Origin: an uncultured Pseudomonadales bacterium
Lineage (GTDB): Bacteria > Patescibacteriota > Microgenomatia > UBA1400 > CAYXSR01
Length of the DNA stretch: 64,000 nt
Direction of reading: 5' to 3'
Assembly (NCBI GenBank): GCA_964430265.1
Contig: CAYSEI010000003.1
Location: 65,070-129,069, forward strand
A model generated the notes under the pieces. It worked only from the letters and a program-made list of their open reading frames with translations, was not told where the DNA came from and searched no databases. Positions 14,755 through 61,434 of the stretch are shown piece by piece. The translations under genes were made by a program, and so were the position numbers. How positions within the stretch are numbered: position 1 is the stretch's first letter; each line of letters begins with the position of its first letter.

Positions 14755-16140
14755 ATGGATAAACAAAAGCTTTGGAAATCGGTTTTAGAAGAACTACAAA
14801 TCTCTCTTTCTAAAGCTAGTTTTTCTGCTTGGTTTGCCCAAACTCAAATCTTGGATTTAAAAAACGGCGAAAAAAATTCACACCAAAAAATTGAAATTGG
14901 GGTACCAAACCCATTTGTAAAAGAAACAATTAAGAATAAGTACAATAATCAAATAAAAGAAATTTTGGATCGGATTACCAGAAAAAACAATCTCCTCAGT
15001 TTTACAATCAAAACTCACACCAAACAAGGAGAGAGTGATGAATTAGGTCCCCTTTTTAATAAAAAGAAAAAAACAGACAAAGAAAAAAAACACGATCCCA
15101 CAAAACGAGTAATTCAAAAATCAGGTTTAAAAGAGGATTATACTTTTAAAACTTTTGCCGTTTCTTCCACAAATGAAGCTGCTTATGCAGCTGCTGAAAG
15201 TGTTGCTAAAAATCCGGGAATGACATATCAGCTACTTTTTTTGTATGGCGGAGTAGGGGTAGGCAAAACACACTTAATGCATGCGATTGGACATCAAGTT
15301 ATTCAGGATGATCCCAAAACCAAGCTTGTTTACTGCACCGGAGAAGAATTTACCAATGAAATTATAGAAGCAATTCGAAAAAAAAGCACCTCAAACTTCA
15401 GAAGAAAATACCGGTCCGCAAAACTGTTATTAATTGACGACATCCAGTTTATTGGAGGGAAAGATGCAGTCCAAGAAGAATTTTTTCATACATTTAATAC
15501 TATTCACCGCGCAAAGGGTCAAATTATAATAACCAGCGACCGTGATCCTCACGAGATTAAAGGGCTTGAAGACCGTCTACGTTCACGCTTTGAAGGTGGT
15601 TTGGCAATTGATATTCAAAGACCAAACTTTGAACTCCGATCCGCTATTCTTTTAATTAAATCTAAACAAAGAAATATTCACCTGCCAATGGATGTTGCTC
15701 AATTAATTGCTGCCAATATTGAAAGCACCCGGGCCCTAGAAGGATTTTTAATGCGCTTAATAACTGAAGCCCAAAGACAAAACTCTCCAATTAATCCAGA
15801 AATGGCAAATGCCTTGCTAGGAAAAACAAAAAAAGAAAAAGCACAAAAAAAACACACTACTGCCAAGGATATAATGCGTCAAGTTTCCGACTTCTACGAC
15901 TTAAAAATAAAAGATCTCAAAGGAAAAAGAAGAAAAAAAGAGATTGTTGTTCCCAGACAAATTGCAATGTATTTATTGCGAACAGAAATGGGAGTTCCTT
16001 TTATGAAAATTGGAGATCTTTTTGGAGGAAGAGACCACACTACTGCAATGCACTCTGTGGAAAAAATAACCAATGAACTTTCTAACTCTGAGTCTTTAAG
16101 AGTAGACATTGCTGCTTTAAAGAAACAGTTATTCACATAA
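14755..16140 (+). CDS. dnaA: Chromosomal replication initiator protein DnaA
   Basis: AAA+ Walker A GGVGVGKTHL, Walker B LLLIDDIQF, sensor motifs, C-terminal DNA-binding domain (…GGRDHTTAMHS…). Confidence 0.95.
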   Translation: MDKQKLWKSVLEELQISLSKASFSAWFAQTQILDLKNGEKNSHQKIEIGVPNPFVKETIKNKYNNQIKEILDRITRKNNLLSFTIKTHTKQGESDELGPLFNKKKKTDKEKKHDPTKRVIQKSGLKEDYTFKTFAVSSTNEAAYAAAESVAKNPGMTYQLLFLYGGVGVGKTHLMHAIGHQVIQDDPKTKLVYCTGEEFTNEIIEAIRKKSTSNFRRKYRSAKLLLIDDIQFIGGKDAVQEEFFHTFNTIHRAKGQIIITSDRDPHEIKGLEDRLRSRFEGGLAIDIQRPNFELRSAILLIKSKQRNIHLPMDVAQLIAANIESTRALEGFLMRLITEAQRQNSPINPEMANALLGKTKKEKAQKKHTTAKDIMRQVSDFYDLKIKDLKGKRRKKEIVVPRQIAMYLLRTEMGVPFMKIGDLFGGRDHTTAMHSVEKITNELSNSESLRVDIAALKKQLFT

Positions 16141-16485: not shown

Positions 16486-17607
16486 ATGAAAGTAAAAGTC
16501 CTTCAGGAAAATCTAGCTAATAGCTTATCAACAGTCAGCAGAGTTGTTGGCAGCGGAACAAATCTTCCGATTTTGGAAAATATACTTTTAAGTGCAGAAG
16601 AAAAAGGTCTAATTGTATCTGCTACTGATTTGGAAACAGGAATTAGTGTTAGGGTACCAGCAAAAGTTGAGCAAAAAGGAAAACTAACTTTACCAGCAAA
16701 AAAAATAACTCAATTTATAGCTTCCCTTCCAGCAGAAAATGTATCCTTGGAAAAAAAAGGGGAAAAACTTGAAGTTGAGTGTCAAAACTTTGAAGCTACT
16801 TTTAACGGAATATCGGCTGAAGAGTTTCCAGAGCTTCCAAGTTTAAAAAACAAAAAGAAGCTTGAAAACGTGGAAGTTTTTAAAATGGATTCAGCTGTTT
16901 TTATATCAGCTATAGAAAAAGTTGTTTTTGCAGCAGCAGTGGATGAAAGTCGTCCGGTTTTGAACGGTGTAAGAATATCAAGCGAGGAAAATGGACTGCA
17001 AATGGTTGCAACTGATGGATATCGTTTGAGCATTGAAACAATTAAGATGGAAGACAAAATACGCCTACCTGAACTTCTAGTTCCGGGAAAAGCCTTAAAA
17101 GAATTAATAAGAATTTTCCCCAGCGATAAAGAGTTTAAAATTGCCTTAACCAGTAGGGAAAATCAAGTTATTTTTGAATTTGAAGATATTGAAATTGTTA
17201 CTCGCTTAATTGAAGGAGAATTTCCTCAGTTTGAAAAAATTATTCCGGAAGAAGGAAAAACAAAGGTAGTTATTGATAAAGAACCTTTGGAAAGGGCAAT
17301 TCGTGCTACAGCAATTTTTGCAAGGGAAAGTGCCAATATTATGAAAATGGAGTCTGACGAACAAAAAATTTATATTAGTTCCAATGCAGCACAAGTTGGT
17401 AAAAACAAGATTGAAATTGAGGTTGAAAAAGAAGGTCCAGAATTTGAAATTGCTTTTAACTGGCGCTTTTTACAGGATTTTTTAAATATTATAGAAAGCG
17501 AAAAAGTGAATTTTGAATTTAGTGGATCCTTAAAACCGGGAATATTTCGCTCGCAAAAAGATAAAGATTTTCTTCATGTAATTATGCCTGTACGCATTCA
17601 GGACTAA
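16486..17607 (+). CDS. dnaN: DNA polymerase III beta sliding clamp
   Basis: 373 aa, three-domain beta-clamp pattern; position directly after dnaA/oriC. Confidence 0.9.
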   Translation: MKVKVLQENLANSLSTVSRVVGSGTNLPILENILLSAEEKGLIVSATDLETGISVRVPAKVEQKGKLTLPAKKITQFIASLPAENVSLEKKGEKLEVECQNFEATFNGISAEEFPELPSLKNKKKLENVEVFKMDSAVFISAIEKVVFAAAVDESRPVLNGVRISSEENGLQMVATDGYRLSIETIKMEDKIRLPELLVPGKALKELIRIFPSDKEFKIALTSRENQVIFEFEDIEIVTRLIEGEFPQFEKIIPEEGKTKVVIDKEPLERAIRATAIFARESANIMKMESDEQKIYISSNAAQVGKNKIEIEVEKEGPEFEIAFNWRFLQDFLNIIESEKVNFEFSGSLKPGIFRSQKDKDFLHVIMPVRIQD

Positions 17608-17611
17608 AAGA

Positions 17612-19579
17612 TTATTCCTTTTTTGGTGGTTTTGGTGGAGTTATTGATCCGCGAATATTACTCTCATTATTTTCTTTCTTCTCTATTTTTGGTTTAGGAG
17701 ATGTTTGGGGTATTGGAGAAGGTGAAGGGGGCGGGGTTGGTTTTGGAGAGGAAGATGAACTGGAAATTGAAGAACGAGGTTTTTTTTGAATATCATTGGG
17801 ATTGGAAGTTATTATTTTATGTTCTTCTTCTGATGCAACAACATTCATGGCAACGTGGTTTGCACCGGCAAAAAATATTCCGTGACCAACGTCAGCTGAC
17901 AAGAGTAGATTTTTTTCACCCTGTGAAAGATAAAAAGTTTTTGCTAGCAGATCAATTGCTGCAGGACTTTGTTTTAAAAGGATTTGAATTGAAGAGTTGG
18001 TAATAATTGCTTTTCCATGGTCGCTGTGTAAAAAGTCTTCAACGTCTTGTGTAATGGTTGTTAGACCCAGATTGTATTTTCTTGCACGTTTAGCAATACT
18101 GTAAAGAAAGTTTGCAGAGTCCTCATGTTGCATTAAGTACCATGCTTCATCAACGATTAAAATGCGCTTCTTGCGGTCACGTTTAATTTTTGTCCAAATG
18201 TAGTCCAAAATCATAAATATTGCTACCGGTCTTAGCTTATCTTCCAATTCCCGTGTTGAAAAAACAGTGAAAGGATTATTAAGTTTTACAGAGCTTTGCT
18301 GGTCAAAAACTCCGCGTAAAGAACCTTTAACAAATCGTTCCAGTTTAGCAGCCATTGTTTCTGACTCCTTTTTTTCCATCCCAACTAGAACCTTATAAAG
18401 ATCTTCCAATAATGGAGGTTGGTTGGAAAAGGTTGCAGGGTCTTGAGTAATACCTTTTTGCTTGTAGGTTAATACAAGTGCCTGGTCAAGAATGGCTTCT
18501 TCAGTGGGAGAAACTTCTCCCATAATAATTTTAAACAAGGCGTGTAAAGAAAGAATTTTTTGACTTAAAGCGCTTTCATTTTCTGATTCCATTCCGGATA
18601 AATCAAAAGGATTAATTTTTTGGGGAGAGTCAAGGGAGAAGTTAATATATTCGCCTCCCACAGACTCACAAAGGTCGCGGTATTCAGATTCCGGGTCAAT
18701 AACCAAAATTTCTGTTCCAAACATTAAGGAACGCAGAGCTTCAAGCTTAACCATGTAGCTTTTTCCGGCTCCCGACTTTGCCAAAACAAGCGTGTTTGCG
18801 TTTTCCAAAGAAAAGCGGTCAAATATTATTAATGATTCATTGTGTTCATTTATTCCGTATAAAATCCCTTTATTTGCTGTTAGTTGAGAAGAAGTAAAAG
18901 GAAAGGTTGTTGCTAATGAGGTTGTATCCATGTTTCTGGTAATGTTTAATTTGTCCTTGCAAGCTGGCAAAGTGCTTTTAAAAGCTTGTTCCATTTGCAA
19001 TGTGGCTGGTTTGGAAACTATCATTAAAGACCCAAGAGTTGACTGCATTTTTTGAGAGATAGAATTAAGGTCTTTTTTATTTTTTTCTGGTAGGGTTATA
19101 TACAAGCCCAACCTAAAGAACTTTTCTGAACCTTTGGCTAGTTGTTCCTGTAAAGAATGTGCGTCTTCCAATTTAACTTTGGTTTGAATATTGGCAATTC
19201 TGCCTCTTTCAAGATCTGTTTGAATCTCGGCTTCCATTTCTCCTATTTTTCTTTTTAGGTTTTCAAGAATACCTTTGCCCTCAATCGGATAAATAAACAT
19301 CGAGATATCCAAAGAATGGTCAAAGTTGATTAAAGGGGAAAGCCAATTTGCGTTAACAAATCTAGGATATCCAGCCACAAAGAAAGTTCGGAAAAAAGTG
19401 TTGGAAATTTTTAAATCATTAAAATCAACTTCAATAGCAGGGGGAGCAATAACGTCTTTTACTGAAACCATGCCTTCGGATAGTTTGTCAATTGTGGACT
19501 TTTTTTGCTCAGGTTTATTGTCTTTTTTTTCTTTTTTCTTTTTTGACAAAAATGGTAAGTCAAAAGGTAAGTCAACCAT
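17612..19579 (-). CDS. VirB4/TrbE/TraC-family type IV secretion ATPase with Pro/Ser-rich C-terminal tail
   Basis: Walker A LVLAKSGAGKSYMV, Walker B KRILIVDEAWYLM, N-terminal …FFVAGYPRFVNANWLSPL… region typical of VirB4/PrgJ-type ATPases; start trimmed to the Met at 19579; low-complexity SSSSSSPKPTPPPSPSPIP tail. Confidence 0.65.
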   Translation of the reverse strand: MVDLPFDLPFLSKKKKEKKDNKPEQKKSTIDKLSEGMVSVKDVIAPPAIEVDFNDLKISNTFFRTFFVAGYPRFVNANWLSPLINFDHSLDISMFIYPIEGKGILENLKRKIGEMEAEIQTDLERGRIANIQTKVKLEDAHSLQEQLAKGSEKFFRLGLYITLPEKNKKDLNSISQKMQSTLGSLMIVSKPATLQMEQAFKSTLPACKDKLNITRNMDTTSLATTFPFTSSQLTANKGILYGINEHNESLIIFDRFSLENANTLVLAKSGAGKSYMVKLEALRSLMFGTEILVIDPESEYRDLCESVGGEYINFSLDSPQKINPFDLSGMESENESALSQKILSLHALFKIIMGEVSPTEEAILDQALVLTYKQKGITQDPATFSNQPPLLEDLYKVLVGMEKKESETMAAKLERFVKGSLRGVFDQQSSVKLNNPFTVFSTRELEDKLRPVAIFMILDYIWTKIKRDRKKRILIVDEAWYLMQHEDSANFLYSIAKRARKYNLGLTTITQDVEDFLHSDHGKAIITNSSIQILLKQSPAAIDLLAKTFYLSQGEKNLLLSADVGHGIFFAGANHVAMNVVASEEEHKIITSNPNDIQKKPRSSISSSSSSPKPTPPPSPSPIPQTSPKPKIEKKENNESNIRGSITPPKPPKKE

Positions 19580-20276
19580 TTTGTTTTTCCTGTTGTTTTT
19601 TAATTGCTGCTTGAACAAGAGAGCGAGTATAGTTTTCAGAAGATGTAAATTTTTGACCTTCACTTTCCGGATTGTATATTTGGTAAAAAAGACGGATCAG
19701 CTCTTTTGTTTCCAGTTGCCGGCTGTTTAGTCCGATTCGGGTTAATTGTTTTATCATATGATCTCTTTTAGGATATAGATTGTTTTTGGCTTTTTCCAGT
19801 ATATAGTCAATTGGATAAGGAAGTTTTTGAGATTTTTTAAATGAAGAACTGATTGAGCTGGCAACTCCCAACTCAGTGGTTGAAAAAGGAATAATAACAT
19901 AAAAGTTTTTATCCAATATTTCTCTGTTTTTAACAGTTTCTTCAATAAACGAGTAATATTTTTTTAACCATTCTTTAATTTGTCTTGGCTTTTTTTTATT
20001 TATTTCATTGTCTAAAAGTTTAAGATAAGAAGAAATATCTTTTTGCTGAGAACGAATAAAAACTTGAATTGTAAAAGAAAGAGAATTTAAAAGCTCTCCG
20101 TATGCATAAATTGTTGCGTCCTGCTCTTTTTCTGATAAAAGACCAAAGTTAACAGCTGTTGTTTGTAAAATAATACAGCAGGAACCGTCTTTAAAAATAA
20201 CGATGTTGTCTTTTACATCTTCAATATCGAGGTGTTCTTGTGTGCTTGCTCTGATTGGAGTTTGGGCAGGGTTCAT
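19572..20276 (-). CDS. Hypothetical protein resembling the CagE/TrbE/VirB4 N-terminal domain (T4SS-associated)
   Basis: …IVIFKDGSCCIILQTTAVNFGLLSEKEQDATIYAYGELLNSLSFTIQVFIRSQ… resembles the N-terminal domain of VirB4/TraC; directly upstream of the ATPase gene with a 5-nt gap. Confidence 0.4.
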   Translation of the reverse strand: MNPAQTPIRASTQEHLDIEDVKDNIVIFKDGSCCIILQTTAVNFGLLSEKEQDATIYAYGELLNSLSFTIQVFIRSQQKDISSYLKLLDNEINKKKPRQIKEWLKKYYSFIEETVKNREILDKNFYVIIPFSTTELGVASSISSSFKKSQKLPYPIDYILEKAKNNLYPKRDHMIKQLTRIGLNSRQLETKELIRLFYQIYNPESEGQKFTSSENYTRSLVQAAIKKQQEKQNG

Positions 20277-20294
20277 TTTTTTATTTATATAATA

Positions 20295-21431
20295 TTAATA
20301 TAGCTCAATGTGCTCTTTTTTTCCTTCTTCTTTTATTTGTTTTTTCTTTTGAGCTTGTATACGTAATGGATCAATAATTTCTCCTTCTAACTCAAGAGTT
20401 ATTATATCAAATTCAAAGAGTTCATGTTCAGGAATTATTTTATAAGAACCGTTTTTTAATGGAGTGGCTGTATAAAATTGTCCCAGCTTGTTTGTTTTAA
20501 GCGCTCGGACAATATTGCCTTTTGAATCTTGAATTTCAATTAAAGCATTAGGGAGAATTTTGGATTCAGTGTCTAAAACCATGCCGACCAAAAGATTTGA
20601 AATGTCTGGTTTCTGTGGAATAGGCAGTTCCTTTTCAAATTCCGCTTCGGAAAACTTTTGGTCTTTTCTGCGGTTTTCTACTTTAAGAGGAGGTGTTAAA
20701 GGCTCTGCGGGTTTAACTTGTGGTTTCTTTTGAAATTTGGATTCGTGGTTGTTGATTAAAGGTTCTTCCCTGTCCTTTTTTATTTTAAGCGGTTTTTCCT
20801 TTTGTATTTCTACGGGCTTTTTTTGTACAAGAGATGTATAAACTGTTTGGTCTTTTTTCAGGTTTCTTTTGCTACTGAGCTTTCTTACTTTTACTTCAGG
20901 CTTTTGTTGTTTTTCTGTTTCTGGCTGAGTTTGTGGTCTTTTTTGTATTGAAACTTTTTGCGGTTGAATATTTTGTAAAAGATTGTTTATTCTGGCTAAT
21001 TGTTGGTCCTCTTCTCCGGCCCCGGCTTGTGCATCAGGAAGTGTTTTTAAAAAGCTTTGCAGATCTTTTGTTTGTTTTTTGTTTTTATCTTCTTTTATAT
21101 TTATTTTTTTATGATAGGTGAATTCAAAAGCGGGGGGAGTAATTGATTTCTTTTTCCAAATAAATTGTGTAGGATGGGTAATTGATTTGATAAAGTTTTT
21201 AAACCAAACGTCTAAAGGTCTTTCCTCTACCGGAAAAAAAGCCATGGCTATACCTGTAAACGCAGAGAGCACTATTAAAGGAATACGGAAAAATGAATGG
21301 ATGGGAAGAATATAAAAAAAGACGGCCACGGCAATGCCGCCGGCAAGTTCAAAAAACTGTTTTAAAGTCATGTCTCCAACCAAGCGGAACTCGTAAGAAG
21401 CAATATCTTGTGGAATTGGGTGTTGTTTCAT
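20295..21431 (-). CDS. Two-TM membrane protein, TcpE/PrgI(VirB3)-like N-terminus with K/Q-rich linker and C-terminal domain
   Basis: N-terminal …YEFRLVGDMTLKQFFELAGGIAVAVFFYILP… plus a second TM helix, a topology common to VirB3/TcpE proteins that precede VirB4; remainder lysine-rich with no homology recognised. Confidence 0.35.
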   Translation of the reverse strand: MKQHPIPQDIASYEFRLVGDMTLKQFFELAGGIAVAVFFYILPIHSFFRIPLIVLSAFTGIAMAFFPVEERPLDVWFKNFIKSITHPTQFIWKKKSITPPAFEFTYHKKINIKEDKNKKQTKDLQSFLKTLPDAQAGAGEEDQQLARINNLLQNIQPQKVSIQKRPQTQPETEKQQKPEVKVRKLSSKRNLKKDQTVYTSLVQKKPVEIQKEKPLKIKKDREEPLINNHESKFQKKPQVKPAEPLTPPLKVENRRKDQKFSEAEFEKELPIPQKPDISNLLVGMVLDTESKILPNALIEIQDSKGNIVRALKTNKLGQFYTATPLKNGSYKIIPEHELFEFDIITLELEGEIIDPLRIQAQKKKQIKEEGKKEHIELY

Positions 21432-21482
21432 ATATGATTAAGTATACAAGATAAAATTAATTCTTAAAAGGAGTTTTTTTCT

Positions 21483-22133
21483 TTACGGATTAAAAGTGTA
21501 TTCTATTTTGTAAGCAGAGGTATCAATACCAATTTCTTCCAATTTTTGCGGAGCTTCTGTTTTTATTTTTTCAATTTGCTCGTTCCTTGATAAAGGTGAG
21601 GTAATATCAATTTTCATTAAAACCCGGAATTGATCTTTAGAACCAAGATACTGAATCTTGTAGTTGTTTGTCTTTATTGGCATATTTGCAATCCATGGTT
21701 TTTCTTTCAGATTTTTTTGCAGTACTTCTCCTGCTGGATCGTCAAGGGTTGGTTTTGCAGTTTTAAAACTCCATTGATAAACTATATTTTGATTGTAGTA
21801 GACATCTATTTTATACTCAGTGCCTTCTTTAAAGTAATTAATTGGGGCGGCTTTCAAAGTTTGTTGATCCAGCCATTTCTTAAGCAGTTGAATTGATGGG
21901 GTGATTTGTATAGAGACTTTGTCTTGTTGTTCGCTGGTCAATTGTTTATGTAATGTAACCAAAATTGGTGTTTCTAGTTTTTCCAAAGTTGAATTTGCAG
22001 CCGGTTGTACTTCTTTTATTTGTGGTTTTTCTTCTATTAACTGATTGACAATTATTAATCCTAGAACTATAAGGGCAAGACTGGTTAAGAGCACGTATTT
22101 GGCTGGTGTTTTTTTAAATATATTTAATCGCAT
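21483..22133 (-). CDS. Hypothetical bitopic membrane protein (possible VirB8-like scaffold)
   Basis: N-terminal TM anchor (VLLTSLALIVLGLIIV) plus ~180-aa extracytoplasmic domain; assignment to VirB8 is by size, topology and context only. Confidence 0.3.
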   Translation of the reverse strand: MRLNIFKKTPAKYVLLTSLALIVLGLIIVNQLIEEKPQIKEVQPAANSTLEKLETPILVTLHKQLTSEQQDKVSIQITPSIQLLKKWLDQQTLKAAPINYFKEGTEYKIDVYYNQNIVYQWSFKTAKPTLDDPAGEVLQKNLKEKPWIANMPIKTNNYKIQYLGSKDQFRVLMKIDITSPLSRNEQIEKIKTEAPQKLEEIGIDTSAYKIEYTFNP

Positions 22134-25100
22134 AGGTGTACAATTGAATTAATTTCCAGTCCGGAATGAGTATCAAACCGGCCGTTTACAAAAGGATAAT
22201 GCTGTCTGTTTTTAGTACCAATGTTTGCTTCACAAGAAACCACTTCATCAGGATGAACTTCGCAAACCAAGCCAACATGGCAGAATCTGCACAAGCCAGT
22301 TGCACGGCGGACATCAAATAGTATCATGTCGCCTTCAGAAACTTCAGAAATATCGACATTTCCATTATTTTTAATTAGTTTTCCTCTATCTTCCCAATTC
22401 TGACTCCAGGGTCCAGGATTCCTGCCGGTAGCGCAAATATCGTCTGCGTCAGGATGTCCAGCTTCACGGTATGAAATACAAACTAAAGAATTACACCAGA
22501 CGCATTCACCTCGGGTGGTTGAATAGTTGTAGTAGTCGCTCCAGTCTGGGCCGCTTACACTACATTCTGGATGGTTCTTTTCCAGGCTATCTCTGATATT
22601 TTCTGCTATTTCTACAATGTCGTTGCAGTTGCCGTTGATAATAACAGAATCAGATCTGGTAATGCTTTCTCCTTCATATTCTGCAGTTGCTGTGACAGTG
22701 TTTCTGATTTTAGTATTGCTGGTTGTACCTGGTTTAGTTGTTGCTGTATAAGTTATTGTTAAACTGTTTCCTGTTTTGGAAAAGTCAAAATCCTCCCAGA
22801 AAAGAGTGTTTCCGTTTATGTTTGTTGGCTGTGGAGAAATAGAATTGGTATTGATATTTAAACTTTGTTCATCAAACGTGTCTTTAATTACTACATTTTG
22901 CACGTCATCAACTGAAGCGGAAATGTCAATAGTGTAAGTGATTGTTTCCCCGCCGCTGTTTACGGTTTTGGGACTAGATTGTTTGTTTACCTTTAAGTAT
23001 TTCTGTGTGCTTGGACCTGGTCCTCCGACGCCAAAATAGGGAACGTATGTAGAAGCATAAATAGTCATTACCAGCATTGCAAGACTGCTTAAACCAACAC
23101 CTGCTCCTACCATAGGGGTTACAATTTCCGCGCTGGAAACTCCAGTATTAACAACTTGATTAGCTGCTTTTGCTGCTGCATTTTTTGCTCCTTTAAACAT
23201 TCCAGTGATTCCGTTCCATATTTTCCCGCCAAATTTAATAATTGTAGCGGCAGCAGTGACAATAGGTACAATAATTGTCAAAGCAGGTAAAATAAAGTTC
23301 ATAAAAAAGAGAGCTATTGGTAGAAAAGGTAAAAGAATTTTAATTGCTTTTTTAACATCTTCGGGAAGCTTGTCCCAGGAGTGTTTTTTAATGAATCCGA
23401 TTGTATGTTTACCAATAAACTTAATTAGGCGGTAGCCTACTTCAAAAACGAGGGTGCCAATAATCCAGCCTATTGCTTGTCCTACCACAGGAATTGGAAT
23501 TACAGATCCGATTGCAGCTCCAATCGTTCCTCCAAGTCCTTCAACAGCAGCATAGCGTAGTAAAGACTTGAAACCTTCTTTTAAAAGTTTATCGGCTGCC
23601 TTTTCTAAACCTTTTTCCAGAAGCTTTTTAGCAACTTTTTTTCGTGCCCAATGCGAAACTTTATTTTTTACTGTTTTGCCAATTTTACCCGGCATCCATT
23701 TTCTTACTTTTTTGCGTGTTTTATTTAGTTTAGGATGTTTATCTAAAAATTTTGCTACTTTGACTCTTGTTTTGTAGCGCGGAGTTAAAAGCCAGCCGAC
23801 AGGTCTTTTTTTAATTTCTTCAACAACCTTATCTTGAACTTTAAATTTAATTTCGTAATATTTGTCAGTGACATACTGTTTTCCAAATACAAGCGGACGG
23901 AAGGGGTTGAGTTTGTTTGCTTGGTCAACAAAGGTGTAGCGCATATTATTAATGTGGGCGCGGACTTGTAAGGTTTTAAACAGGTTTCTGGTAAATAATT
24001 GACCGGAAAAATCCTGCGGAGTGATGTTTTCAAGTTTTTCCAGTTGGTCTGCAAATTCAAGTATTTTAGTAACTCTAGGATCCAAAGGGTTGAGTTGTTC
24101 AGTCAGTTTTATTCCTGCAAACTGATATCCTCTTTGAAGTGAAGTCGCCAAGTCGCGCAAAGTCTGTGCGTTGTGTCCTTTTAAAAACGCATGCAAAGCA
24201 AGATAATCAACGTCAATTTTTTCTGCCAAAACAAGAATTTGCGCGTCTGTTAATTTTCCCGGCTTTGAAAGAAAACTAACAGCATAGTCCTTTACTAGCT
24301 GTGGATCTGAAGATAAAAGGGCTTGTGAAATTGTTAGACCGGGAAGGCTTTCTCCAGATTCAAGCGCTTGGAAGTGAAATTCAAGAAATTCTTTTGTTTG
24401 AGGTTCAATTTTTTCGGAAAGTTCGCTTGCTGCACGGGAAATAACTTGGTCGTCAACTTTAAGAAGAGAAGAGGGAATATCATAGTCTGCTTTTCTGATA
24501 AAATCCTGACGGGCATTATTAATTATAACTTCTAGATTTTCGCGAGTTGTTTTGTGAATATTGTTTTCAATTTGGGTTTGTAAAAGACTGTCTTGCTGGT
24601 ATTGTTCCCAGAGGTTATGTTCAAGTCTGTTTATCTGAATTCCGGTTCTTTGTGAGATTATTTCTTCATTTTCTGTAGCATAATCTTGTAAGTGGTCAGC
24701 AAATTGAGATTGATAAATCTGTTTTTGTGTTGGTGTTTCTTCTTCAGAAAGGCTGGGTTTAATTTTTTCTGCAATTGTTTTTACTTTTTCCTGATAAACC
24801 CTAACGAATTCCTTTTCAATTCTGTTTCTCTTAGGTGGGGGTGCAACTATGGTTTTAAGATTTTCTTTCTTTGTTGTTTTAGTTTGGTGTTGGTCCCACT
24901 CTTTTTTTTGTTCAAAAACTTGTTCTTGATTAAAGTTCTGGAAATCTTGTCTATTTAAGGTCTGTGTAATTGTTTGTGATAGAAGTTTTTTTCCCTCGCT
25001 ATGCATGAAATATGCTTGGTTTGGATCTTGAATCTGGTTCAGCCTATTTATTGTGTTTTTTTGCGCTTTTTGCAGAGCTGCTTGGTGGGCTTGTTGAGCA

Positions 25101-25813
25101 GATATTCCAGGTTGTTGAATCTGTTTTTCAAATTCTTGGGTATATTCATTAAGAGCTGTTTCAGATATTAGAGTTGTATAGGATTGGCGGATTTTTTTTC
25201 TTGTTTGCAGGGTAATGACATCTTCTTGTTTTTGCAGCACCTCTTTTCCGGTTGTAGGGGTTCCGGTTGGTTTTTTTGCTTCCGCTTGTGCTTTTTTTTG
25301 ATTAAGGTTTTCATATATTTGGTCAAAGTAGGAATCAGTTGCTGTTTGGAGGTCTTTTTTTGTTTGTGCGTATGGATTAGCTGTGACTTTAAACCAATTT
25401 TCAATGTTGTTTTGTTCAGCCGTGTCAATCGTTCTTCTTACTACACTACGAATATCTGCTTGTTGTTGCGGGTTTTCTTTATCCAGTTGTTCCAAATAGT
25501 TTTCAAGTATTTCCTTGGGTGGCAGCTTGCCGGTTTCTTCAACAATTTCTGTTTGGTGAAAGGCAATAAAAGCATAAAGGGATTGCTTTAAAATATTTAA
25601 ATTATTAAGCGGATTTTGGGTTAAAACACTAAATTTATTTGCAGATACGTTTTCTCGAAAAATGTTGTTTAGAAATGTTTGGTACTGAGGGTTTTTAATG
25701 TATTCAAGTATTTGTTGACGGGCATTCGGGTTTCCTGTTTCCTGAAAGTCTGCAATTACAGAAAGGATTTGGTTTGTTTTTTGGACTAACTCTTGCGAAA
25801 CTGTTTCGGCCAT
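22124..25813 (-). CDS. Large multidomain envelope protein: N-terminal soluble region, polytopic membrane core, Ig-like (DUF11-type) domain, C-terminal CHAP peptidoglycan hydrolase domain
   Basis: Multiple TM helices around residues 750-930; …TITYTIDISASVDDVQNVVIKDTF… repeat-domain signature; C-terminal CHAP domain with the Cys (…CVWCNSLVCISYREAG…) and His (…CRFCHVGLVCEVH…) catalytic pair; architecture reminiscent of PrgK/TcpG T4SS cell-wall hydrolases. Confidence 0.6.
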   Translation of the reverse strand: MAETVSQELVQKTNQILSVIADFQETGNPNARQQILEYIKNPQYQTFLNNIFRENVSANKFSVLTQNPLNNLNILKQSLYAFIAFHQTEIVEETGKLPPKEILENYLEQLDKENPQQQADIRSVVRRTIDTAEQNNIENWFKVTANPYAQTKKDLQTATDSYFDQIYENLNQKKAQAEAKKPTGTPTTGKEVLQKQEDVITLQTRKKIRQSYTTLISETALNEYTQEFEKQIQQPGISAQQAHQAALQKAQKNTINRLNQIQDPNQAYFMHSEGKKLLSQTITQTLNRQDFQNFNQEQVFEQKKEWDQHQTKTTKKENLKTIVAPPPKRNRIEKEFVRVYQEKVKTIAEKIKPSLSEEETPTQKQIYQSQFADHLQDYATENEEIISQRTGIQINRLEHNLWEQYQQDSLLQTQIENNIHKTTRENLEVIINNARQDFIRKADYDIPSSLLKVDDQVISRAASELSEKIEPQTKEFLEFHFQALESGESLPGLTISQALLSSDPQLVKDYAVSFLSKPGKLTDAQILVLAEKIDVDYLALHAFLKGHNAQTLRDLATSLQRGYQFAGIKLTEQLNPLDPRVTKILEFADQLEKLENITPQDFSGQLFTRNLFKTLQVRAHINNMRYTFVDQANKLNPFRPLVFGKQYVTDKYYEIKFKVQDKVVEEIKKRPVGWLLTPRYKTRVKVAKFLDKHPKLNKTRKKVRKWMPGKIGKTVKNKVSHWARKKVAKKLLEKGLEKAADKLLKEGFKSLLRYAAVEGLGGTIGAAIGSVIPIPVVGQAIGWIIGTLVFEVGYRLIKFIGKHTIGFIKKHSWDKLPEDVKKAIKILLPFLPIALFFMNFILPALTIIVPIVTAAATIIKFGGKIWNGITGMFKGAKNAAAKAANQVVNTGVSSAEIVTPMVGAGVGLSSLAMLVMTIYASTYVPYFGVGGPGPSTQKYLKVNKQSSPKTVNSGGETITYTIDISASVDDVQNVVIKDTFDEQSLNINTNSISPQPTNINGNTLFWEDFDFSKTGNSLTITYTATTKPGTTSNTKIRNTVTATAEYEGESITRSDSVIINGNCNDIVEIAENIRDSLEKNHPECSVSGPDWSDYYNYSTTRGECVWCNSLVCISYREAGHPDADDICATGRNPGPWSQNWEDRGKLIKNNGNVDISEVSEGDMILFDVRRATGLCRFCHVGLVCEVHPDEVVSCEANIGTKNRQHYPFVNGRFDTHSGLEINSIVHLCD

Positions 25814-28260: not shown

Positions 28261-31200
28261 TTATTTTGTTACCCATTCTGGATGTTCACGTTGCTTGTAT
28301 TTCTCTAACAGGGGTTTAAGTGCTTCAATATCTTTTATTTCTAGGTGAACTCCTTCTTTTAACAAATCCTTAAGTCTTGTTGCTTTGTTTTCAGAAGAAA
28401 AATCTATTTCAAGTCTTTCTGCAGCTTCTTGAAAAGATTGGCACTGGTCAATTTCTTGGTCAAAGCGTAATTGATAACTGTTTTCTGGTAACCCGAGAAA
28501 GAAAAAAGTGCGGTCTAAATATTCTCTTAATTTTTGGCAGGAAGCAGCAAAATCATTTTTTGTATCTACGGGATTGTTTTCTTCTTTATGTCCATAGAGA
28601 TACAGAAGTCTTAGATAGTACCTAATGTAAGTTTCAAAATGCATCTGCATATTTTCTTTTGTGAGTTCAGCATTAGGTGGTAGGGGTTGTTTTAGAATAC
28701 TGTCAATTCCTTTGTCTGAAATTCTTTCTCGATCTTCAAATTGTAAATATGAATAATGCATTGGTAAACCTTCCCAAATAGCGGCTAGATTTCTTCTAGG
28801 ATCATCAAGTGCCATCAAATATCTACCTCTTCTCCATAGATCTTTTGGCTTTAGTTTTTTTTCTGATGCTTTTTTTCTAATGCTTTTTCTTAATCTCTTG
28901 TTAAGATCAATCTCTTCTGCTAATCTGTAATCTGGATTGAATCCTCCTGCCTCAGAATATAATGAACTACGATAAACGCCACAACCTAATAAACTTTTTC
29001 TTTGTGTGTATTGAAGATTCATGATCTCTCTAAATCTTTCCACAACGTGTAAGAGAGGTATATGTTCGTATATTTCTGGAGAAAAATCTGCTCGAAAATT
29101 ATATTGTTCTATTTGTGGAGATTGTTCGGAAAGCTTTAGTACACGATTGATATATTCAGGGTTTCTTGCAAAAGCATCTGCGCCTCCAGTTTTCATGAGT
29201 AGATTTGCCTTTTCCTCTGAATTTTTTCTTTTTGAATTTCTGAGAACAACAAGGTCTGCGGGAAGGGTGTATACTAATCCCATTCTAACGCCACCTTTGA
29301 CTGTTACTGTTTTATCTCCAAATTTAACTTCTTCGGCTTTTCCTGAAGGAGGAAAATTAAAAGTCTTTTTTATTGTATGAATATTATATCTTTGATAATC
29401 AGGGTGTTCTTTTAATTCTTGGATTTTTTCATACGTTTCATCAAATTCAACATCTTTATTTGGTCTGTTGATCAATACGATTATTTCAAAAAGATCTGGA
29501 TCTAAGGGTTCTCCATTTTCAGTAAATTGTTCAACCCAGTCTTTTAAAGTGTCTTGAATATTTTGTTCCTCTAGATAAGCAGGGATTACAATTGAGAAAC
29601 GACACTCTTCCTTCATTGGTGGAAGCTGAGAATTTATTTGTTTAAGCTCGGCAAAAAAACTTCTTTCTCCGCCATTTAATCTATATAAAGTTTTTAGTAC
29701 TCTTGGATTTGAACTTTCTAATGTCCATCTTTCTTTAAGCCTGTTTAAGTAATTGTCTTGTGCCTGAAGCCTTTCTTTAATAAGTTTTTCTGGAGTTTGA
29801 TGGGAGGATTCTCTTTTATCTAATCGTTCTTGTTTTTTTTTACCAGTTTTGTCAGTATTTTCAAAGCAAACAGCAGAAACATTATCGCCTGAATAAATAC
29901 CAGATTCTTTATTTGTTAGTGTGTTGACTATTTGTTCTGGTGTTTCCATTTCTGAAATATGTTGTTCTAAATGTTTAGCATATATTTCTCTTGTTATTTC
30001 TCTTCTTGCTTCAGGAGTTAATTTTCTCCATTCTTGACTTATGTTTCTTTCGTTTAATATTTGTCTATAAATTTCTTCTAAGGTTCTTGCTGCTTTTTCT
30101 TTGGGTTCTATTCCTTCCCAGACCCCATCGCAACACAATAAGACCCTCTCTCCTTTTTTAATTTCAATTGAAAATGTAGAAATTTTATTTTCGTCTAATT
30201 TTCTCCCTTTTTCTATTGCAGCTAGAATTCCGCTTCTTTGTGGGTGTGTAATCATTTCGGTAGGAGTAATAACTCCTTGAATTGTCTGTTTCCATACCAA
30301 GCTATCATCATCAGTTAATAATTCAACTTTTCCGTCCTTTCCTATTTTATATCCACGAGTGTCTCCTATATTTGCCCCAACAACGTTATTTCCTTGCTGT
30401 AATGAAATGGTTATTGTTGATCCGCTTCCATGTGGGACTGCAGAAAGATTATTAGTGATACTATCTGCTTTAATCAAAGCTTGTTTAAGGAGGTCTTCAT
30501 TAATTGAATATCCTTTTTCCACTTTGCTAACTAAATTTTGGACAGTAGCAAGTACAATTGCTGAAGAATGAATTTCTCCTCCATGGTAACCACCCATTCC
30601 GTCTGCAACTATGCTGATATTATCAATCTTACCTTCTTTTTTAAGCTTATTATATTTTCCCTCCAGTTCTTTAGCATTAATTTGCAGTTGATCTTCAAGA
30701 GTTTTTATATCTTCAGCATTTAAAATAAAGTTTCCGTCGACAAATATTCCATCTTCATCAGTACTCCTTCCTCCTTTTTCAGTTTTTCCGGCAGTTGTTT
30801 CTGTATAAACAGCATTTTCTTCGATTCGTACTTCTGTTTCAAAGCTAACAGTTGATGGGAGATTCTCCTTTGGCTGTATTCTTAGTTTATCTTGAATTTG
30901 TTTTATTTGCTCAACAATTGGTGTCTCTGATAAGCTTACTTTTGTTTTTCTCGCTATTTCTTTAATCCTTTTTTTTGGAGAAAGTCTTCTTAATTCTTGC
31001 TTTTCTGCTTCAGAGATCTCTAATGAATTATATAGTTCTTCATAAGTTGGAATATTTTTGATTGCTTCATACTCTGGATATTCAAATTTTTTTGATTTTA
31101 TCTCGTGTTCTGGATAACTTGTTTTTGAAACAACAAATTCCTGATATTCAGGGTATTCTTGATAATAGTCAGGATATTCTTCTGCGTACTCGTCTTCATA

Positions 31201-34200
31201 AATTGGAGAGACTAAGCTAGGAGAATGTTGTTCTTTTTCTCCCATTTCCAATGCTCTTCTGCCAGGGCGGAAAATGCTTGGCGGCCATGCTGTTATTTCC
31301 TGTATTTTCTGCGGCAATGCAAAAGATATGCTTTTAAGTTGTTCTTCAACAATTTTGGTTACAGGTCTGACCAAATCAATTGCTGCTTTTGGCACTTCTA
31401 TAATATTAGGGACTGTTTCTTCTGTTACGATTTCTCCTACACTGTCAGTGCCTTTGTATGTTGCAACCGGCATAATATCCGTAACTCCTTCTGCTGCGTC
31501 TTTGATCTGGGCAATTTCTACATAAGCGCCCAAAAATTTGCCGTCTTCAAATAGCTGTGCAACCGGGCTTTCCGCAGGAATACGTGCAACTCCGCTGGCA
31601 TTAAATTCAAAGACAAAAGTGCGGGAAGTATCGGCACTGGATGGTGTTATTATTAATTTTGCTGCATTTTGTTTTACAAACTGACCAACATTTAAACTAG
31701 TTCCCGGTAGTTGTGTTGAAGTGGCGTCTCCAAGATCTCTAAATGACTGAATGACATTACCAGCTTCGTCAACTTTGGGAATTGCCAATCCCAGCTCTGA
31801 ATATTCATAAGGGCCGTCCGGGGTCATATTGTCCCACCAACCCCTTCTTATTACACTTTTAACACCCTTGGCATTATGTATCCATTCACTTATTTTTTTG
31901 GTTACCCTAGTTGTTGTTTCGCCGTCTTGAATATATCTTTTTCTGCTTGAGAAGTCGAGTAAACCCGATTTCTGAACCTGCTGGCGGATTACAGCTTGAT
32001 TAACTATTTCTCCATCAGAATTAAGCTGGATGTTTTTTAATAAAGGAATGTCTTCATTATTAGTTAACAAAGAATAAGTATCTTTTCCAGTTGCTTGTAA
32101 GTGTGTTCCTTCCGGAATTTCCAAAGATGCTTGTTCGTGGCCAATTCTTAATCTTTCAAGAGCATCATAAGCTTTTTCAGTTGGCTCTTGGATTACTTCG
32201 GGTCTGCTGATTGTAGCAACACTTGTTCTTAAAGTACTGACGCCGTGATCTTCCAAAGTATTTTTAATTGCATCAATATCTTGGCTGATATTAGTTATTT
32301 TTTCTCCGTTGGGCAGAGTGATGTCAACTGTGTCTGTTGCTTCGTTAATTTCAAAGCTTGAACCTTCGGGCAGAAAAGCTTTTTCTCCATCATCAAGCGC
32401 CATTGCAACAGTTGGTCCCAATTCCGGGGGAGGGGCAGCTTCTTTAAGGATTCCGAGTTTTTGCAGACCTTTTTCAATTAAAGGGACAGTCTCAAGTTCA
32501 TGTCCAAGAACTTTTTCCCTAAACAAGTGGACGCCTTCCTGGGCCAAAGCGCTGATTACAAATCCTTGAGCGGCGCGGCTCACTGCTCTTAGTCCGGAAC
32601 GTTTAACCCGCCACCTGTTAAATGATTTGTTAATTTCCTTTATTCCCTGAATTTCTGCTGTATCAACGTCATTGCTGACTCCGTCCAAAAGCTTATTTCG
32701 GTGGTAATCGGTTAAATCAGCTATTAAATTATCCGGTTCAATAGTTATTTCATCGTGTTCTTTACTGTATTGCTGCAGTCTGACTTCTGCTTCGGCCAGA
32801 TTGGAAACCAAATCTGATTTTTTACCTTCACTTTGCTCCAGCCCAACAATTAAAGTGTCAATTTCATGTTCATTATTTAAAGAAATTCTAGCTTTTGCCT
32901 CGGCAATAATGGCGCTTGCATTAATAACATCTTGTTCAGTCAGTCTGTCTTTTTGCAAAACTGCATCTAAGGGCTGTAAGATTTCTGAATCAATTTCTTT
33001 CGTGTTGTACAAAAAGCGGGTGAATTCCTGCGTTGGAGTTTTTTCAGGTATTTCCCTTTCCTGAGCAGACCAGCGTGAAACCGCTGTTCTTTCCACTTTT
33101 AGTCTGCCCATTTCATGGAAAAAGCCTCTTATTCCGCCGACAGCGGTAGTAAATACGGGCATTGTTCCAGCAGAAACTAGGCTTGCAAGTTCCTGGTTAC
33201 CGGTCAGTCTTAAGGTAAGGCCGGCAAAACGGGCCGGCAATTTTGCTGCTGAGGTAACCCCAGCTGCAATCGCAGACAAAGTTGTTTCGTGTAGTCCGAC
33301 GTTAATAGTTTTACCCAGGATACTTAATTCTGGTTTATTTTTAATAATTTTTTCCACTGCTTGCTCGGTAATATTTCTTTCTTGTTTTGTTCTAGCGCCA
33401 AAATGTGCTGTTCCTAAAGCAACTTGTAGTTCAGTTTCAGACAATTCTCCTAAGCATTGTTCAAGAGTCTCTTGAAGATCTCCTTCAATTCGGGCGCGTC
33501 CGGCTTGGTGGTGCAGCCAGGTTTTCATTTCATTGGCTGTTTCCAAAAGGGTGTCTCCGTAAAAAAGGGAGGAGGGAAGTAATTCAGGTTTTTTCTTAGC
33601 AATTTCCCGGGCATAATCATGGACTTTGCTGATAAAGCCTTCTTCTGTCATACCTTGTGTAGGAATCTCAAACCCTTCAATTGTTTGCGCATCGGGCATT
33701 AATCCTGATGCCGCATATTCAATTGCCAAGTTTCTTAGACTATCAACAATCCCTTTATGAAACGTATCAGCTTCAGGATTTAGAAGAACAACTCTTTCTC
33801 CGCTGGAAGTGATGAGTTCTTTTTTCTTAGCAAATATATCTTCCGCCTCAGGCAGGAAACGCTGTGCCATTTCTGTCATTGCTTTTCTGTGGGCTTCCAT
33901 CCCGGCCTGACCAGCAAAAATGTTTTCTTCTTGCTCAATTCTTTTTTGTGCGTCTGCAGTTGCCCTAAAGTCAAAATATTCTTTGGCCAAATCATGCTTC
34001 CAGACTCGAACCGCAAATTCCTTTGCCCGCTTAAAAAATCCAGCTTCTTTGTATGCTTCAACAGCGCCAGTAAAAACACTGCCCATTTTATTTAGGAATC
34101 CTGAGGAATTTTTAAAATGTTTTCTTACATAAGAAAGTACACCTTTCTGACTACCGACGGTTTCAGTTCTTTCAAGCATCCCCATATCTCTTGCCATTTC

Positions 34201-38575: not shown

Positions 38576-38626
38576 TTTCCTTTTCGGGCTTAATTTGGTA
38601 TAATAACTCCTTAAGAAAGGAGAAGA

Positions 38627-43623: not shown

Positions 43624-43953
43624 TTAGTTAACAATTTTAAAAACAGTTACTTCAACACCGGTAAAGGATTCAATTATTCGGAATATAAACCAGACTCCTA
43701 TTATCAATATTAATCCAATTAATGCAGTAGTAATTGTTTTTTTTGCTTGCTGGGTTTGTTCTGGGTTTGCTCCTGCGGTAAGGAATTGGAAACCTCCAAT
43801 TAAAAGCATAATAAAAAGTACAATTGCACCGGCAGTGGTGATCAAAGATAAAATATTGCCAATCAATATTTCCAGATCGCCAAAGTCTGCCGGTTCATTT
43901 GCAGGAGAATCCCATTCTTCTAATTGAGCATAAACAGTTGATACTAGGCTCAT
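43624..43953 (-). CDS. VirB2/TrbC-like pilin paralog
   Basis: Leader ending VYAQ; helix 1, GGFQFLTAGANPEQ…AKKTITTALIGLILI, helix 2: a two-helix pilin pattern shared with the neighbours. Confidence 0.5.
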   Translation of the reverse strand: MSLVSTVYAQLEEWDSPANEPADFGDLEILIGNILSLITTAGAIVLFIMLLIGGFQFLTAGANPEQTQQAKKTITTALIGLILIIGVWFIFRIIESFTGVEVTVFKIVN

Positions 43954-43962
43954 AAATATGTT

Positions 43963-44343: not shown

Positions 44344-44399
44344 CTCCTTTAATCTTATTTTTTAATTATAACTATCCCTTCTCTGTTGTCAAGGGAAAA

Positions 44400-44756: not shown

Positions 44757-44757
44757 T

Positions 44758-51870: not shown

Positions 51871-51885
51871 GGAGTTGCGGTAATA

Positions 51886-52902: not shown

Positions 52903-52903
52903 T

Positions 52904-61152: not shown

Positions 61153-61218
61153 ACAGAGATTGTAGAATTCGGATTTATTGAAGTCAAGAAAGAATGATAT
61201 AATATATAAGCTTAACAG

Positions 61219-61304
61219 AGGAGGGTTGGCTGAGCGGTCAAAAGCGATGGTCTTGAAAACCATTGGGGTTAAACCCCGCAGAGGTTCGAATCCTCTACCC
61301 TCCG
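61219..61304 (+). tRNA. tRNA-Ser (anticodon TGA)
   Basis: GGAGGGT acceptor arm, anticodon loop CTTGAAA, long variable arm (TGGGGTTAAACCCCGC), T-arm GGTTCGAATCC. Confidence 0.8.
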
Positions 61305-61433: not shown

Positions 61434-61434
61434 C

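Follow-up and report, generated by a model that had tools for sequence, protein, structure and literature searches.

Type IV secretion systems (T4SSs) of Patescibacteria, the candidate phyla radiation (CPR) bacteria, are treated in a 2025 nomenclature review from the Christie group as a recognized newcomer to the T4SS superfamily (PMC12857230). The Saccharibacterium Southlakia epibionticum requires the T4SS encoded by SEML1_0006-0019 for its epibiotic growth (Wang et al. 2023, PMC10633639); this system is similar to the conjugation systems of Gram-positive bacteria, has essential pilins and a pilin array, and comes without a relaxase or coupling protein (PMC10633639). A survey of 3,035 Patescibacteria genomes found VirB4 in about 80% of them, as a monophyletic clade nested in the MPF-FATA conjugation systems (Quinonero-Coronel et al. 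2025, PMC12102498), with TrsD as the most abundant accessory component, PrgI as a frequent one and relaxases nearly absent (PMC12102498). According to the same survey, dnaA, dnaN, rnpA, and rpmH are typical T4SS neighbors in Paceibacteria and Microgenomatia (PMC12102498), and Microgenomatia, a class in which VirB6 is scarce, VirB8 almost undetectable, and VirB1 seldom linked to virB4 (PMC12102498), have abundant pilin arrays (PMC12102498; review PMC12857230). The current study deals with a T4SS gene cluster next to dnaN on a 64-kb stretch of contig CAYSEI010000003.1 (GenBank assembly accession number GCA_964430265.1), hereafter called the window.

A chromosomal T4SS core next to dnaN

The five genes at 17612-25813 are in all likelihood the core of a chromosomal, non-conjugative, and origin-proximal T4SS of Patescibacteria, a lineage that arose from monoderm conjugation machinery (MPF-FATA) and no longer has the parts for DNA processing. 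The original prediction, a reading of the sequence without database searches, had already proposed a Gram-positive-style T4SS, and this is borne out by the VirB4 profile models, the best of which are monoderm, and by the non-CPR relatives, which belong to Clostridia, Bacilli, and Spiroplasma at 28% identity. Its five minus-strand open reading frames (ORFs) are all present at the positions it had given; the interval chosen at that time holds genuine core genes, but it leaves out the half of the system that comprises the pilins and a second polytopic protein. The cluster and its two upstream neighbors read as follows:

17612-19582, minus strand: ORF1, VirB4 ATPase of 656 aa, counted from the ATG at 19582; the ORF is extendable to a GTG at 19663
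19572-20276, minus strand: ORF2, TrsD-like protein of 234 aa
20295-21431, minus strand: ORF3, PrgI/VirB3-like protein of 378 aa
21483-22133, minus strand: ORF4, bitopic membrane protein of 216 aa
22124-25813, minus strand: ORF5, polytopic protein of 1229 aa
25860-26612, minus strand: ORF6, M50-like polytopic protein of 250 aa
26631-27806, minus strand: ORF7, Wzy-like gene

From ORF1 to ORF7 the spacings are, in order, -8, 18, 51, -10, 46, and 18 nt. The gaps of 5-60 nt that had been reported for the five core genes are hence roughly right, with intervals of 18 and 51 nt, but the two other junctions are overlaps of 8 and 10 nt. The 8-nt overlap of ORF2 and ORF1, which reads ATGGTTGA, presupposes that VirB4 starts at the ATG at 19582 and not at the GTG at 19663; the last codons of ORF2 contain this ATG (overlap sequence AATGGTTGA). 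A promoter and terminator scan gave nothing beyond the shuffled expectation.

On the other side of the VirB4 stop codon lie two replication genes:

14755-16140, plus strand: dnaA (Pfam Bac_DnaA, 2e-62)
16486-17607, plus strand: dnaN (three Pfam DNA_pol3_beta domains)

The end of dnaN at 17607 is 4 nt away from the stop codon of VirB4, and the two genes are convergent. The genes rnpA, yidD, and yidC and a jag-like KH/R3H gene are located on the minus strand at about 14-16 kb, where the cumulative GC skew of the window also has its minimum. Because of this minimum and the presence of the rnpA, yidD, yidC, jag-like, dnaA, and dnaN genes, the region around dnaA and dnaN is the replication origin. 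Between the VirB4 stop codon (17.6 kb) and 37.5 kb all long genes except one are encoded on the minus strand, long ORFs being defined here as those with 100 aa or more that do not lie inside longer ones. With the origin at about 14-16 kb, transcription of this segment is therefore head-on to replication. The G+C content of the window is low (about 0.30-0.41).

A two-piece VirB4 ATPase

The ORF1 protein, which had been called a VirB4-family ATPase on the basis of its Walker motifs, matches the NCBIfam model conju_CD1110 (VirB4-like conjugal transfer ATPase, CD1110 family) with an E value of 2.4e-116 and 389.8 bits, i.e., well above the cut-off of 325, and covers positions 172-733 of the 752 in this profile. 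The two motifs, Walker A (GAGKS) at residue 271 and Walker B (IVDEAW) at residue 476, are intact. All remaining NCBIfam matches belong to the VirB4, TraC, TrbE, or CedB families, and the Pfam matches are P-loop_TraG (3.3e-32), AAA_10, and CagE_TrbE_VirB. The top-ranking models are of monoderm origin, namely, the CD1110 family and Mbov_0397 of a mycoplasma integrative and conjugative element (ICE). An ATPase of the FtsK/HerA type, which would have spoken against a T4SS, was considered as well: the HerA/DUF87 match reaches only 32.8 bits, as expected from the shared superfamily, and ORF1 is a VirB4 and not an ATPase of that type. The C-terminal tail of about 55 aa (window 17612-17770) is rich in S, P, and K, which is an unusual extension for a VirB4.

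ORF1 aligns to residues 207-774 of the 776-aa VirB4 proteins of Clostridia, and the part that precedes this range has its counterpart in ORF2. The ORF2 protein matches positions 110-292 of VirB4_plasma, the NCBIfam model of mycoplasma-ICE VirB4, with 2.8e-8, and hhalign places a profile of 44 CPR TrsD sequences on residues 13-190 of VirB4 from Clostridia (E 4e-5, probability 70%). When ORF2 and ORF1 were concatenated artificially, a single unbroken match to positions 111-893 of the 894 in VirB4_plasma resulted, with an increase of the score from 287 to 312, and the same concatenate matched TIGR00929 in a single stretch (positions 18-725 of 792). The direct match of ORF2 to the NCBIfam model TrsD is weak (4e-4; score 20.2, far below the cut-off of 200), and the TrsD identity is accordingly based on the profile-profile alignment and the collinearity with full-length VirB4 rather than on a curated threshold. 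We therefore classify ORF2, from these alignments, as a TrsD-type detached N-terminal domain of VirB4, which makes the predicted ATPase a two-piece enzyme; the earlier description of the second gene as "CagE-N-like" had pointed in this direction, and the VirB4_plasma match and the collinear concatenate specify it. A separate trsD gene is found in 43 of the 45 CPR loci described below. A frameshifted VirB4 pseudogene was considered and ruled out, since the TrsD/VirB4 split is kept in these 43 loci.

Conservation and chromosomal position

A VirB4 scan of species-representative genomes served to fetch 45 CPR loci. VirB4 is 56-71% identical to its counterparts in these loci, and after a large gap 13 loci of Clostridia, Bacilli, and Spiroplasma follow at 28%. 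All informatively named CPR loci belong to the Microgenomates group (Beckwith-, Chisholm-, Shapiro-, Gottesman-, Woese-, and Pacebacteria), whereas the names of several records from binning pipelines are implausible; the source genome is, judged by this kinship, that of a Microgenomatia-type Patescibacterium.

Of the 45 CPR loci, 42 retain the gene order PrgI-TrsD-VirB4, and 34 have the cluster next to dnaN and/or dnaA, in most cases with rnpA, yidC, or jag adjoining. Because of this shared order and neighborhood, the dnaN-proximal position is considered ancestral for the class and not the result of an insertion. The original prediction had regarded the module as inserted directly downstream of dnaN, and in this respect it has to be corrected: the position is conserved across Microgenomatia (34 of 45 loci) and typical of the phylum (PMC12102498).

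Signs of mobility were not found either. No type IV coupling protein (T4CP/VirD4), relaxase, or integrase has a Pfam match among the long ORFs of the 64-kb window, in agreement with what had been noticed from the sequence alone. The only tRNA genes of the window are located at about 61 kb, 35 kb from the cluster; a scan for att-like direct repeats gave only low-complexity chance matches; and the GC content of the cluster is like that of its flanks, without any compositional step.

The 1229-aa polytopic protein and its family

ORF5 encodes the largest protein of the core. Its first approximately 700 residues are helical, rich in Q, K, and E, and probably cytoplasmic, and residues 690-765 are basic (23 K/R versus 6 D/E). 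Three regions follow:

23042-23539, minus strand: transmembrane block, residues 759-924, with hydropathy segments 759-792, 820-865, and 897-924 (about 4-5 helices)
22649-22996, minus strand: Ig-like beta-sandwich of the DUF11/DUF7507 type (DUF11/CnaB-like), residues ~940-1055
22127-22630, minus strand: C-terminal domain of the NlpC/P60-CHAP superfamily, residues 1062-1229

The first hairpin of the transmembrane block is glycine-zipper-like, and Gly-zipper Pfam matches occur in up to 3 of the 25 family members introduced below. The beta-sandwich has a Pfam match to DUF7507 (0.014) in ORF5 itself, and its homologues match DUF11, DUF7927, and DUF7507. AlphaFold2 (AF2) models of residues 912-1229 and of ORF4 were made from the single sequences without an alignment. 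In the model of residues 912-1229 the sandwich reached predicted local distance difference test (pLDDT) values of 55-82, and a Foldseek search led to Gram-positive pilins and adhesins (EbpB, ACE19, and BcpA; E 1e-4 to 1e-3), while the pLDDT of the catalytic domain was <50.

The candidate catalytic residues of the C-terminal domain are Cys1107, His1179, Glu1195, and Asn1197 in a C...H...E-x-N pattern. An exhaustive HMMER search with ORF5 yielded 33 relatives among 1.84 billion representatives, and an alignment of 11 homologous domains shows no variation in the Cys, the His, and two glycines and almost none in the Asn. CHAP is the top Pfam match in 6 of the 9 ORF5 homologues scanned, with E values from 1.8e-5 to 9.5e-3 and 17-25.6 bits, compared with a gathering threshold (GA) of 26, and one of the 25 locus-family members has a Pfam CHAP match of 1.9e-6. 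When the profile of the 11 domains was compared with the PDB, 15 of the 18 top matches were NlpC/P60 or CHAP enzymes, the individual E values being weak (0.012-1); among them were CwlO, wall hydrolases of Tn916-like conjugative transposons, glutathionylspermidine amidase, and a phage lysin, and in the alignment with CwlO the catalytic Cys and His are in register with the residues of the ORF5 family. In ORF5 itself, neither Pfam nor NCBIfam recognized any domain at the usual thresholds, CHAP had no Pfam match even at E<=1, and PDB sequence searches with ORF5 alone or with a two-sequence profile returned spurious matches only. Word-indexed homologue searches with the full ORF5, its C-terminal 198 aa, or the 11-sequence alignment retrieved ORF5 itself or nothing; they were probably swamped by G/A/K-rich low-complexity words.

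On account of the invariant Cys and His, the sub-threshold CHAP matches of the homologues, and the PDB profile matches, we place the C-terminal domain at the superfamily level as a predicted papain-like wall amidase or peptidase of the NlpC/P60-CHAP superfamily, whose scores stay short of formal Pfam CHAP membership. The earlier call of a polytopic protein ending in CHAP is thus upheld for the hydrophobic block and for a Cys/His domain of this superfamily, but the CHAP assignment itself lies below the threshold and is reached only via homologues. Likewise, "PrgK-like" is appropriate for the shared CHAP-like domain and not for the remaining architecture, which is without an SLT or muramidase domain, crosses the membrane 4-5 times and not once, and includes about 700 residues that are probably cytoplasmic.

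An iterated hidden Markov model (HMM) search that started from ORF5 collected 25 proteins in CPR loci, all of them positional equivalents, which are encoded either upstream of PrgI, as in the window, or between VirB4 and dnaN. Homologues detectable with phmmer among the CPR loci were restricted to L001 and L002, and that of L006 was found by iteration. In 22 of 24 loci, the ORF5-family gene is followed by one for a bitopic protein. Eight relatives have the ORF5-like gene immediately after virB4, which results in the order VirB3-VirB4-polytopic (plus hydrolase)-bitopic. The C-terminal enzyme of the family is a Peptidase_M23 in 16 of the 25 members (best E 2.5e-21); CHAP (Pfam) and a GH5 cellulase occur in one member each and an HExxH zincin motif in four. 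The five members that end in HExxH (HE[LTA]GH) or, once, in GH5 instead of M23 or CHAP are those of loci L031, L024, L016, and L006 and one further protein. The lytic module is exchangeable between species. No match to VirB6, TrbL, or PrgH was found in the ORF5 family with Pfam, and an hhalign comparison with proteins of Clostridial conjugative elements (ICEs) established no link.

A more far-reaching reading, which we regard as speculative and rather unlikely, is that the ORF5 family supplies the VirB6-like channel subunit that the Microgenomatia T4SS has been missing, in fusion with a wall-breaching enzyme whose lytic module has been swapped to match the wall of each epibiont's host; it would then act as a host-range determinant on the host envelope and not on the cell's own wall.

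The ORF6 protein, encoded upstream of ORF5, has an intramembrane HExxH motif (HEVSH) and a weak Pfam match to Peptidase_M50 (site-2 protease) of 1.7e-3, below GA. In L001 and L002 its homologue is the gene immediately upstream of the ORF5-family gene, in L006 it lies at a distance of one gene, and ORF6 may be an accessory processing protease of the system.

The PrgI-like protein and the bitopic protein

The third gene had been called VirB3-like, and the first 89 residues of its product indeed match Pfam PrgI with 5.4e-10 and 40.1 bits (GA 27), with a hydrophobic hairpin at residues 23-70 of this domain. The C-terminal beta-sandwich weakly resembles CarboxypepD_reg (Pfam, 4.4e-4, below GA). Almost the full length of ORF3 (about residues 1-360) could be aligned in 29 of the 45 CPR loci. 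Between the PrgI domain and the conserved beta-sandwich lies a K/Q/E/P-rich linker of about 170 aa (window 20300-21150), a feature that is unusual for VirB3.

ORF4 has a single predicted N-terminal transmembrane segment at residues 9-35, which agrees with its earlier designation as a bitopic membrane protein. A structural comparison of this gene product (21483-22133) with VirB8 had been suggested, and a likeness was not recovered: no VirB8 or PrgL Pfam match was present among 23 positional equivalents of ORF4, the AF2 single-sequence model was poor (pLDDT 53), and the matches of the fold search were noise. A weak match to the Ig-like Big_5 was all that Pfam returned for ORF4, and its only sequence homologue among the CPR loci is that of L001. 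Of the bitopic positional equivalents, 19 form one sequence family, and ORF4 and its L001 orthologue form another. A comparison of the ORF4 ectodomain with the 19-member family by hhalign gave no link, the transmembrane helix alone being matched. ORF4 is consequently described as the positional partner of the 1229-aa polytopic protein; its role as a VirB8 analogue is putative and unproven.

Pilin genes and the 494-aa polytopic protein

The second half of the system is encoded about 17 kb away from the VirB4 core:

42095-43579, minus strand: polytopic protein of 494 aa (signal peptide, about 8-10 transmembrane segments), immediately downstream of the pilin genes
43624-46173, minus strand: seven tandem genes for VirB2-like T4SS pilins of 106-148 aa (Pfam T4SS_pilin, 29.1-45.5 bits, GA 26.6)
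52585-53755, minus strand: two further pilin-domain genes of 105 aa and 283 aa (Pfam T4SS_pilin, 43.6 and 32.5 bits, GA 26.6)

The nine pilin-domain sequences have a mean pairwise identity of 27% (range, 19-35%). The 283-aa protein, whose N-terminal extension of about 200 aa is rich in Cys, may be an adhesin or else a minor or tip pilin. Five of the seven array pilins (window 43624-45916) have a very short leader that ends in (V/A)YAQ, e.g., MSLVSTVYAQ, and in the 494-aa protein SPAFAQ precedes a pilin-like module; the YAQ/FAQ ends suggest a dedicated processing site.

The N-terminal module of the 494-aa protein weakly resembles TrbC/VirB2 (Pfam matches in 2 of 7 members, best 4.4e-6). Six full-length homologues (E 4e-56 to 4e-34) are all encoded upstream of PrgI-TrsD-VirB4. 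In three of these loci (L023, L039, and L041) the homologue is accompanied by pilin genes, both within <=10 kb upstream of PrgI-TrsD-VirB4, and in the other three (L008, L012, and L033) the homologue is present without a detected pilin gene. The contiguity with the core in L023, L039, and L041 supports the view that the pilin array and the 494-aa protein of the window belong to the same T4SS. A Pfam match to VirB6 or TrbL was not found in the 494-aa family, and the protein is a candidate for a VirB6-type channel subunit.

The gap of about 17 kb between the two halves is occupied by the M50-like and Wzy-like genes, a gene for a 2967-aa protein, and several genes without known function. The 2967-aa protein (28261-37164, minus strand) contains a PP2C phosphatase domain in its interior (2.3e-10) as well as extended acidic stretches of low complexity; it is encoded between the two T4SS halves, and none of the 45 related loci has a homologue. 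Two co-directional plus-strand ORFs of 304 and 1154 aa (37661-42091) are very E/K-rich and have neither a Pfam match nor a homologue in the related loci; the hydrophobic C-terminal stretch of the 1154-aa ORF, read from the translation, resembles a membrane helix.

Proposed function and alternative explanations

The analysis establishes the identity of the components, their conservation and chromosomal position, and the absence of DNA-processing genes from the window. From this we infer what the channel might consist of, what the hydrolase might cut and whether it is active, and what might be moved in which direction. VirB3 would anchor the VirB4 hexamer at the membrane, and VirB4 would pull pilins from the membrane and power the assembly of a short pilus or conduit via a channel, which may be built of one or both polytopic proteins (1229 and 494 aa). 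The external hydrolase domain would open peptidoglycan, either the cell's own or that of the host, and the bitopic partner would position the hydrolase as PrgL does for PrgK. Proteins or other macromolecules would then pass between epibiont and host bacterium by way of this machine. DNA conjugation would not be among its tasks, because no coupling protein or relaxase accompanies the cluster. A secretion or surface-filament system in place of a conjugative element had been proposed as a possibility in the original prediction, which fits the published view (PMC10633639, PMC12102498) and is strengthened by the nine pilin genes.

Several points weigh against this interpretation. No component matched VirB6 or VirB8 by sequence, i.e., with Pfam in the positional equivalents of ORF4 and in the ORF5 and 494-aa families, and because of this and of the failed structure prediction the assignment of the channel is a tentative one. 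The CHAP domain of the ORF5 family stays below the Pfam threshold, and since PrgK has CHAP and LytM domains without catalytic activity in vitro (PMC11323569), activity of the ORF5 domain cannot be taken for granted. T4CP homologues are common in Patescibacteria at sites far from virB4 (PMC12102498), and as the part of the genome seen here amounts to 64 kb, a coupling protein or relaxase may be encoded elsewhere. The kinship of VirB4 is a probable one, deduced from an identity ranking and profile scores. Finally, substrate and direction are not known even in the cultivated model (PMC11665869).

Among the alternatives, the one that fares best, even if it appears unlikely, is that the system imports DNA, other macromolecules, or nutrients from the host, like ComB of H. 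pylori or the archaeal Ced system, instead of exporting effectors. Patescibacteria are devoid of nucleotide synthesis, competence is dispensable in the model, and reviews have proposed uptake by the T4SS (PMC11665869, PMC12857230); the absence of a coupling protein would suit an uptake system, and VirB4 has a weak similarity to CedB of DNA import (8e-15, far below the cut-off). This CedB score is, however, much lower than those of the conjugative VirB4 families, the cluster contains no ComEC-like or nuclease partner, and the sequence gives no sign of a direction. Still less probable is a mere surface filament, i.e., a VirB2-like pilus with variable pilins that serves adhesion without any substrate transfer. 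The nine divergent pilin paralogues with their mean identity of 27%, the Cys-rich extension of one pilin as a conceivable tip adhesin, and the lack of a coupling protein among the long ORFs of the window would fit such a filament, but type IV pili already serve adhesion in Patescibacteria (PMC12857230), and a wall hydrolase together with the VirB3/VirB4 translocon core has been retained across the class, as would be expected for a channel. A decayed ICE, inserted downstream of dnaN and since deprived of integrase, relaxase, and coupling protein, is highly improbable and was rejected on the basis of the conserved synteny: the best VirB4 models were built on ICE and conjugative-transposon proteins (CD1110, Mbov_0397) and the ultimate ancestry of the system is conjugative (PMC12102498), but the gene order is shared by 42 of the 45 CPR loci, 34 of them with the cluster beside dnaN and/or dnaA, VirB4 identity tracks taxonomy, all genes are intact without a compositional anomaly, and neither an integrase nor a relaxase or T4CP was found among the long ORFs of the 64-kb window, nor was a tRNA gene near the cluster or a repeat at its flanks.

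Other genes in the window

Upstream of dnaA, an 1149-aa fusion protein (8500-11949, minus strand) combines an N-terminal NAD-dependent sugar epimerase/dehydratase with DUF4012. Mevalonate-pathway genes, namely, two GHMP kinases and a diphosphomevalonate decarboxylase, are located at 48970-52584, and they are accompanied by genes for an undecaprenyl-diphosphate synthase and a polyprenyl synthetase at 46254-47237. Two tRNA-Ser genes are arranged in tandem at 61220-61434; the 5' end of a TTG-started ORF (60121-61317, minus strand) overlaps a tRNA-Ser gene, and the true start of this ORF is probably located further downstream.

Comparison with known systems

The T4SS of the window shares with those described from Patescibacteria (PMC10633639, PMC12102498) a VirB4, a separate TrsD-like gene, and a PrgI/VirB3 homologue, furthermore an array of VirB2-like pilins (paralogues about 25% identical) and a wall hydrolase in the cluster, as well as the location adjoining dnaA and dnaN without a relaxase or coupling protein nearby. 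It differs from the T4SS of Southlakia epibionticum in being a Microgenomatia-type member and not that of a Saccharibacterium, and from the described Patescibacteria systems in general by the distance of about 17 kb between the pilin/polytopic genes and the VirB4 core.

With the MPF-FATA systems, e.g., Prg of pCF10, Tra of pIP501, Trs of pGO1/pSK41, and the conjugative transposon (CTn) elements of C. difficile, the window has in common a VirB4 of the CD1110 family, a PrgI-type VirB3, and the lack of an outer-membrane core. A TrsD-type protein is also known from pGO1, and a membrane-anchored multidomain wall hydrolase beside a bitopic protein is reminiscent of PrgK and PrgL of pCF10. In contrast to these systems, the cluster is chromosomal and vertically inherited, has no relaxase, coupling protein, or PrgB-type adhesin, and encodes a VirB4 that is only 28% identical to those of Firmicutes; VirB2-like pilins, which Gram-positive systems lack, are present.

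ORF5 shares with the VirB1-type hydrolases PrgK (pCF10), TraG (pIP501), and Orf14 (Tn916) its location in a T4SS cluster and a predicted papain-like Cys-His domain (CHAP or NlpC/P60) outside the cell. Its N-terminal part is, as in PrgK, long and probably intracellular, and ORF5 orthologues carry M23/LytM, the other domain type of PrgK. On the other hand, ORF5 has no SLT, lysozyme, or LytM match, about 4-5 transmembrane segments and not one, approximately 700 probably cytoplasmic residues, and an Ig-like stalk domain, all of which set it apart from the three proteins, and no similarity to PrgK was detected beyond the superfamily of the catalytic domain. Extended VirB6 proteins of MPF-FA systems (700-900 aa; e.g., Orf15 of Tn916 and ConG of ICEBs1) are likewise large, combine at least 5 hydrophobic helices with extensive hydrophilic domains, and are encoded beside VirB4 or VirB3, but this likeness is one of position and architecture only; a sequence or profile similarity to VirB6, TrbL, or membrane proteins of Clostridial ICEs was not found. 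The order VirB3-VirB4-polytopic (plus hydrolase)-bitopic parallels orf17-16-15-14-13 of Tn916. The pair formed by the ORF5 family and the bitopic protein mirrors the partnership of PrgK and PrgL of pCF10 (PMC11323569, PMC12857230).

Patescibacteria T4SSs are essential to epibiotic life in the one tractable model, and their cargo and direction are a central question for about a quarter of bacterial diversity. The window leaves this overall picture unchanged and, because the organism is uncultivated, makes the function no more testable. Every main feature of its T4SS has already been described (2023-2025), and the window represents a complete Microgenomatia example with all parts within one 64-kb stretch. 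A modest addition is the ORF5 family with its bitopic partner, whose C-terminal hydrolase varies between species (M23, CHAP-like, HExxH, and GH5). In view of the scarce VirB6 and the seldom linked VirB1 reported by the survey, two membrane-protein families of the window, i.e., the 1229-aa protein with its terminal hydrolase and bitopic partner and the 494-aa polytopic protein, are candidates for the roles that the survey had left unfilled, namely, those of VirB6, VirB8, and VirB1.

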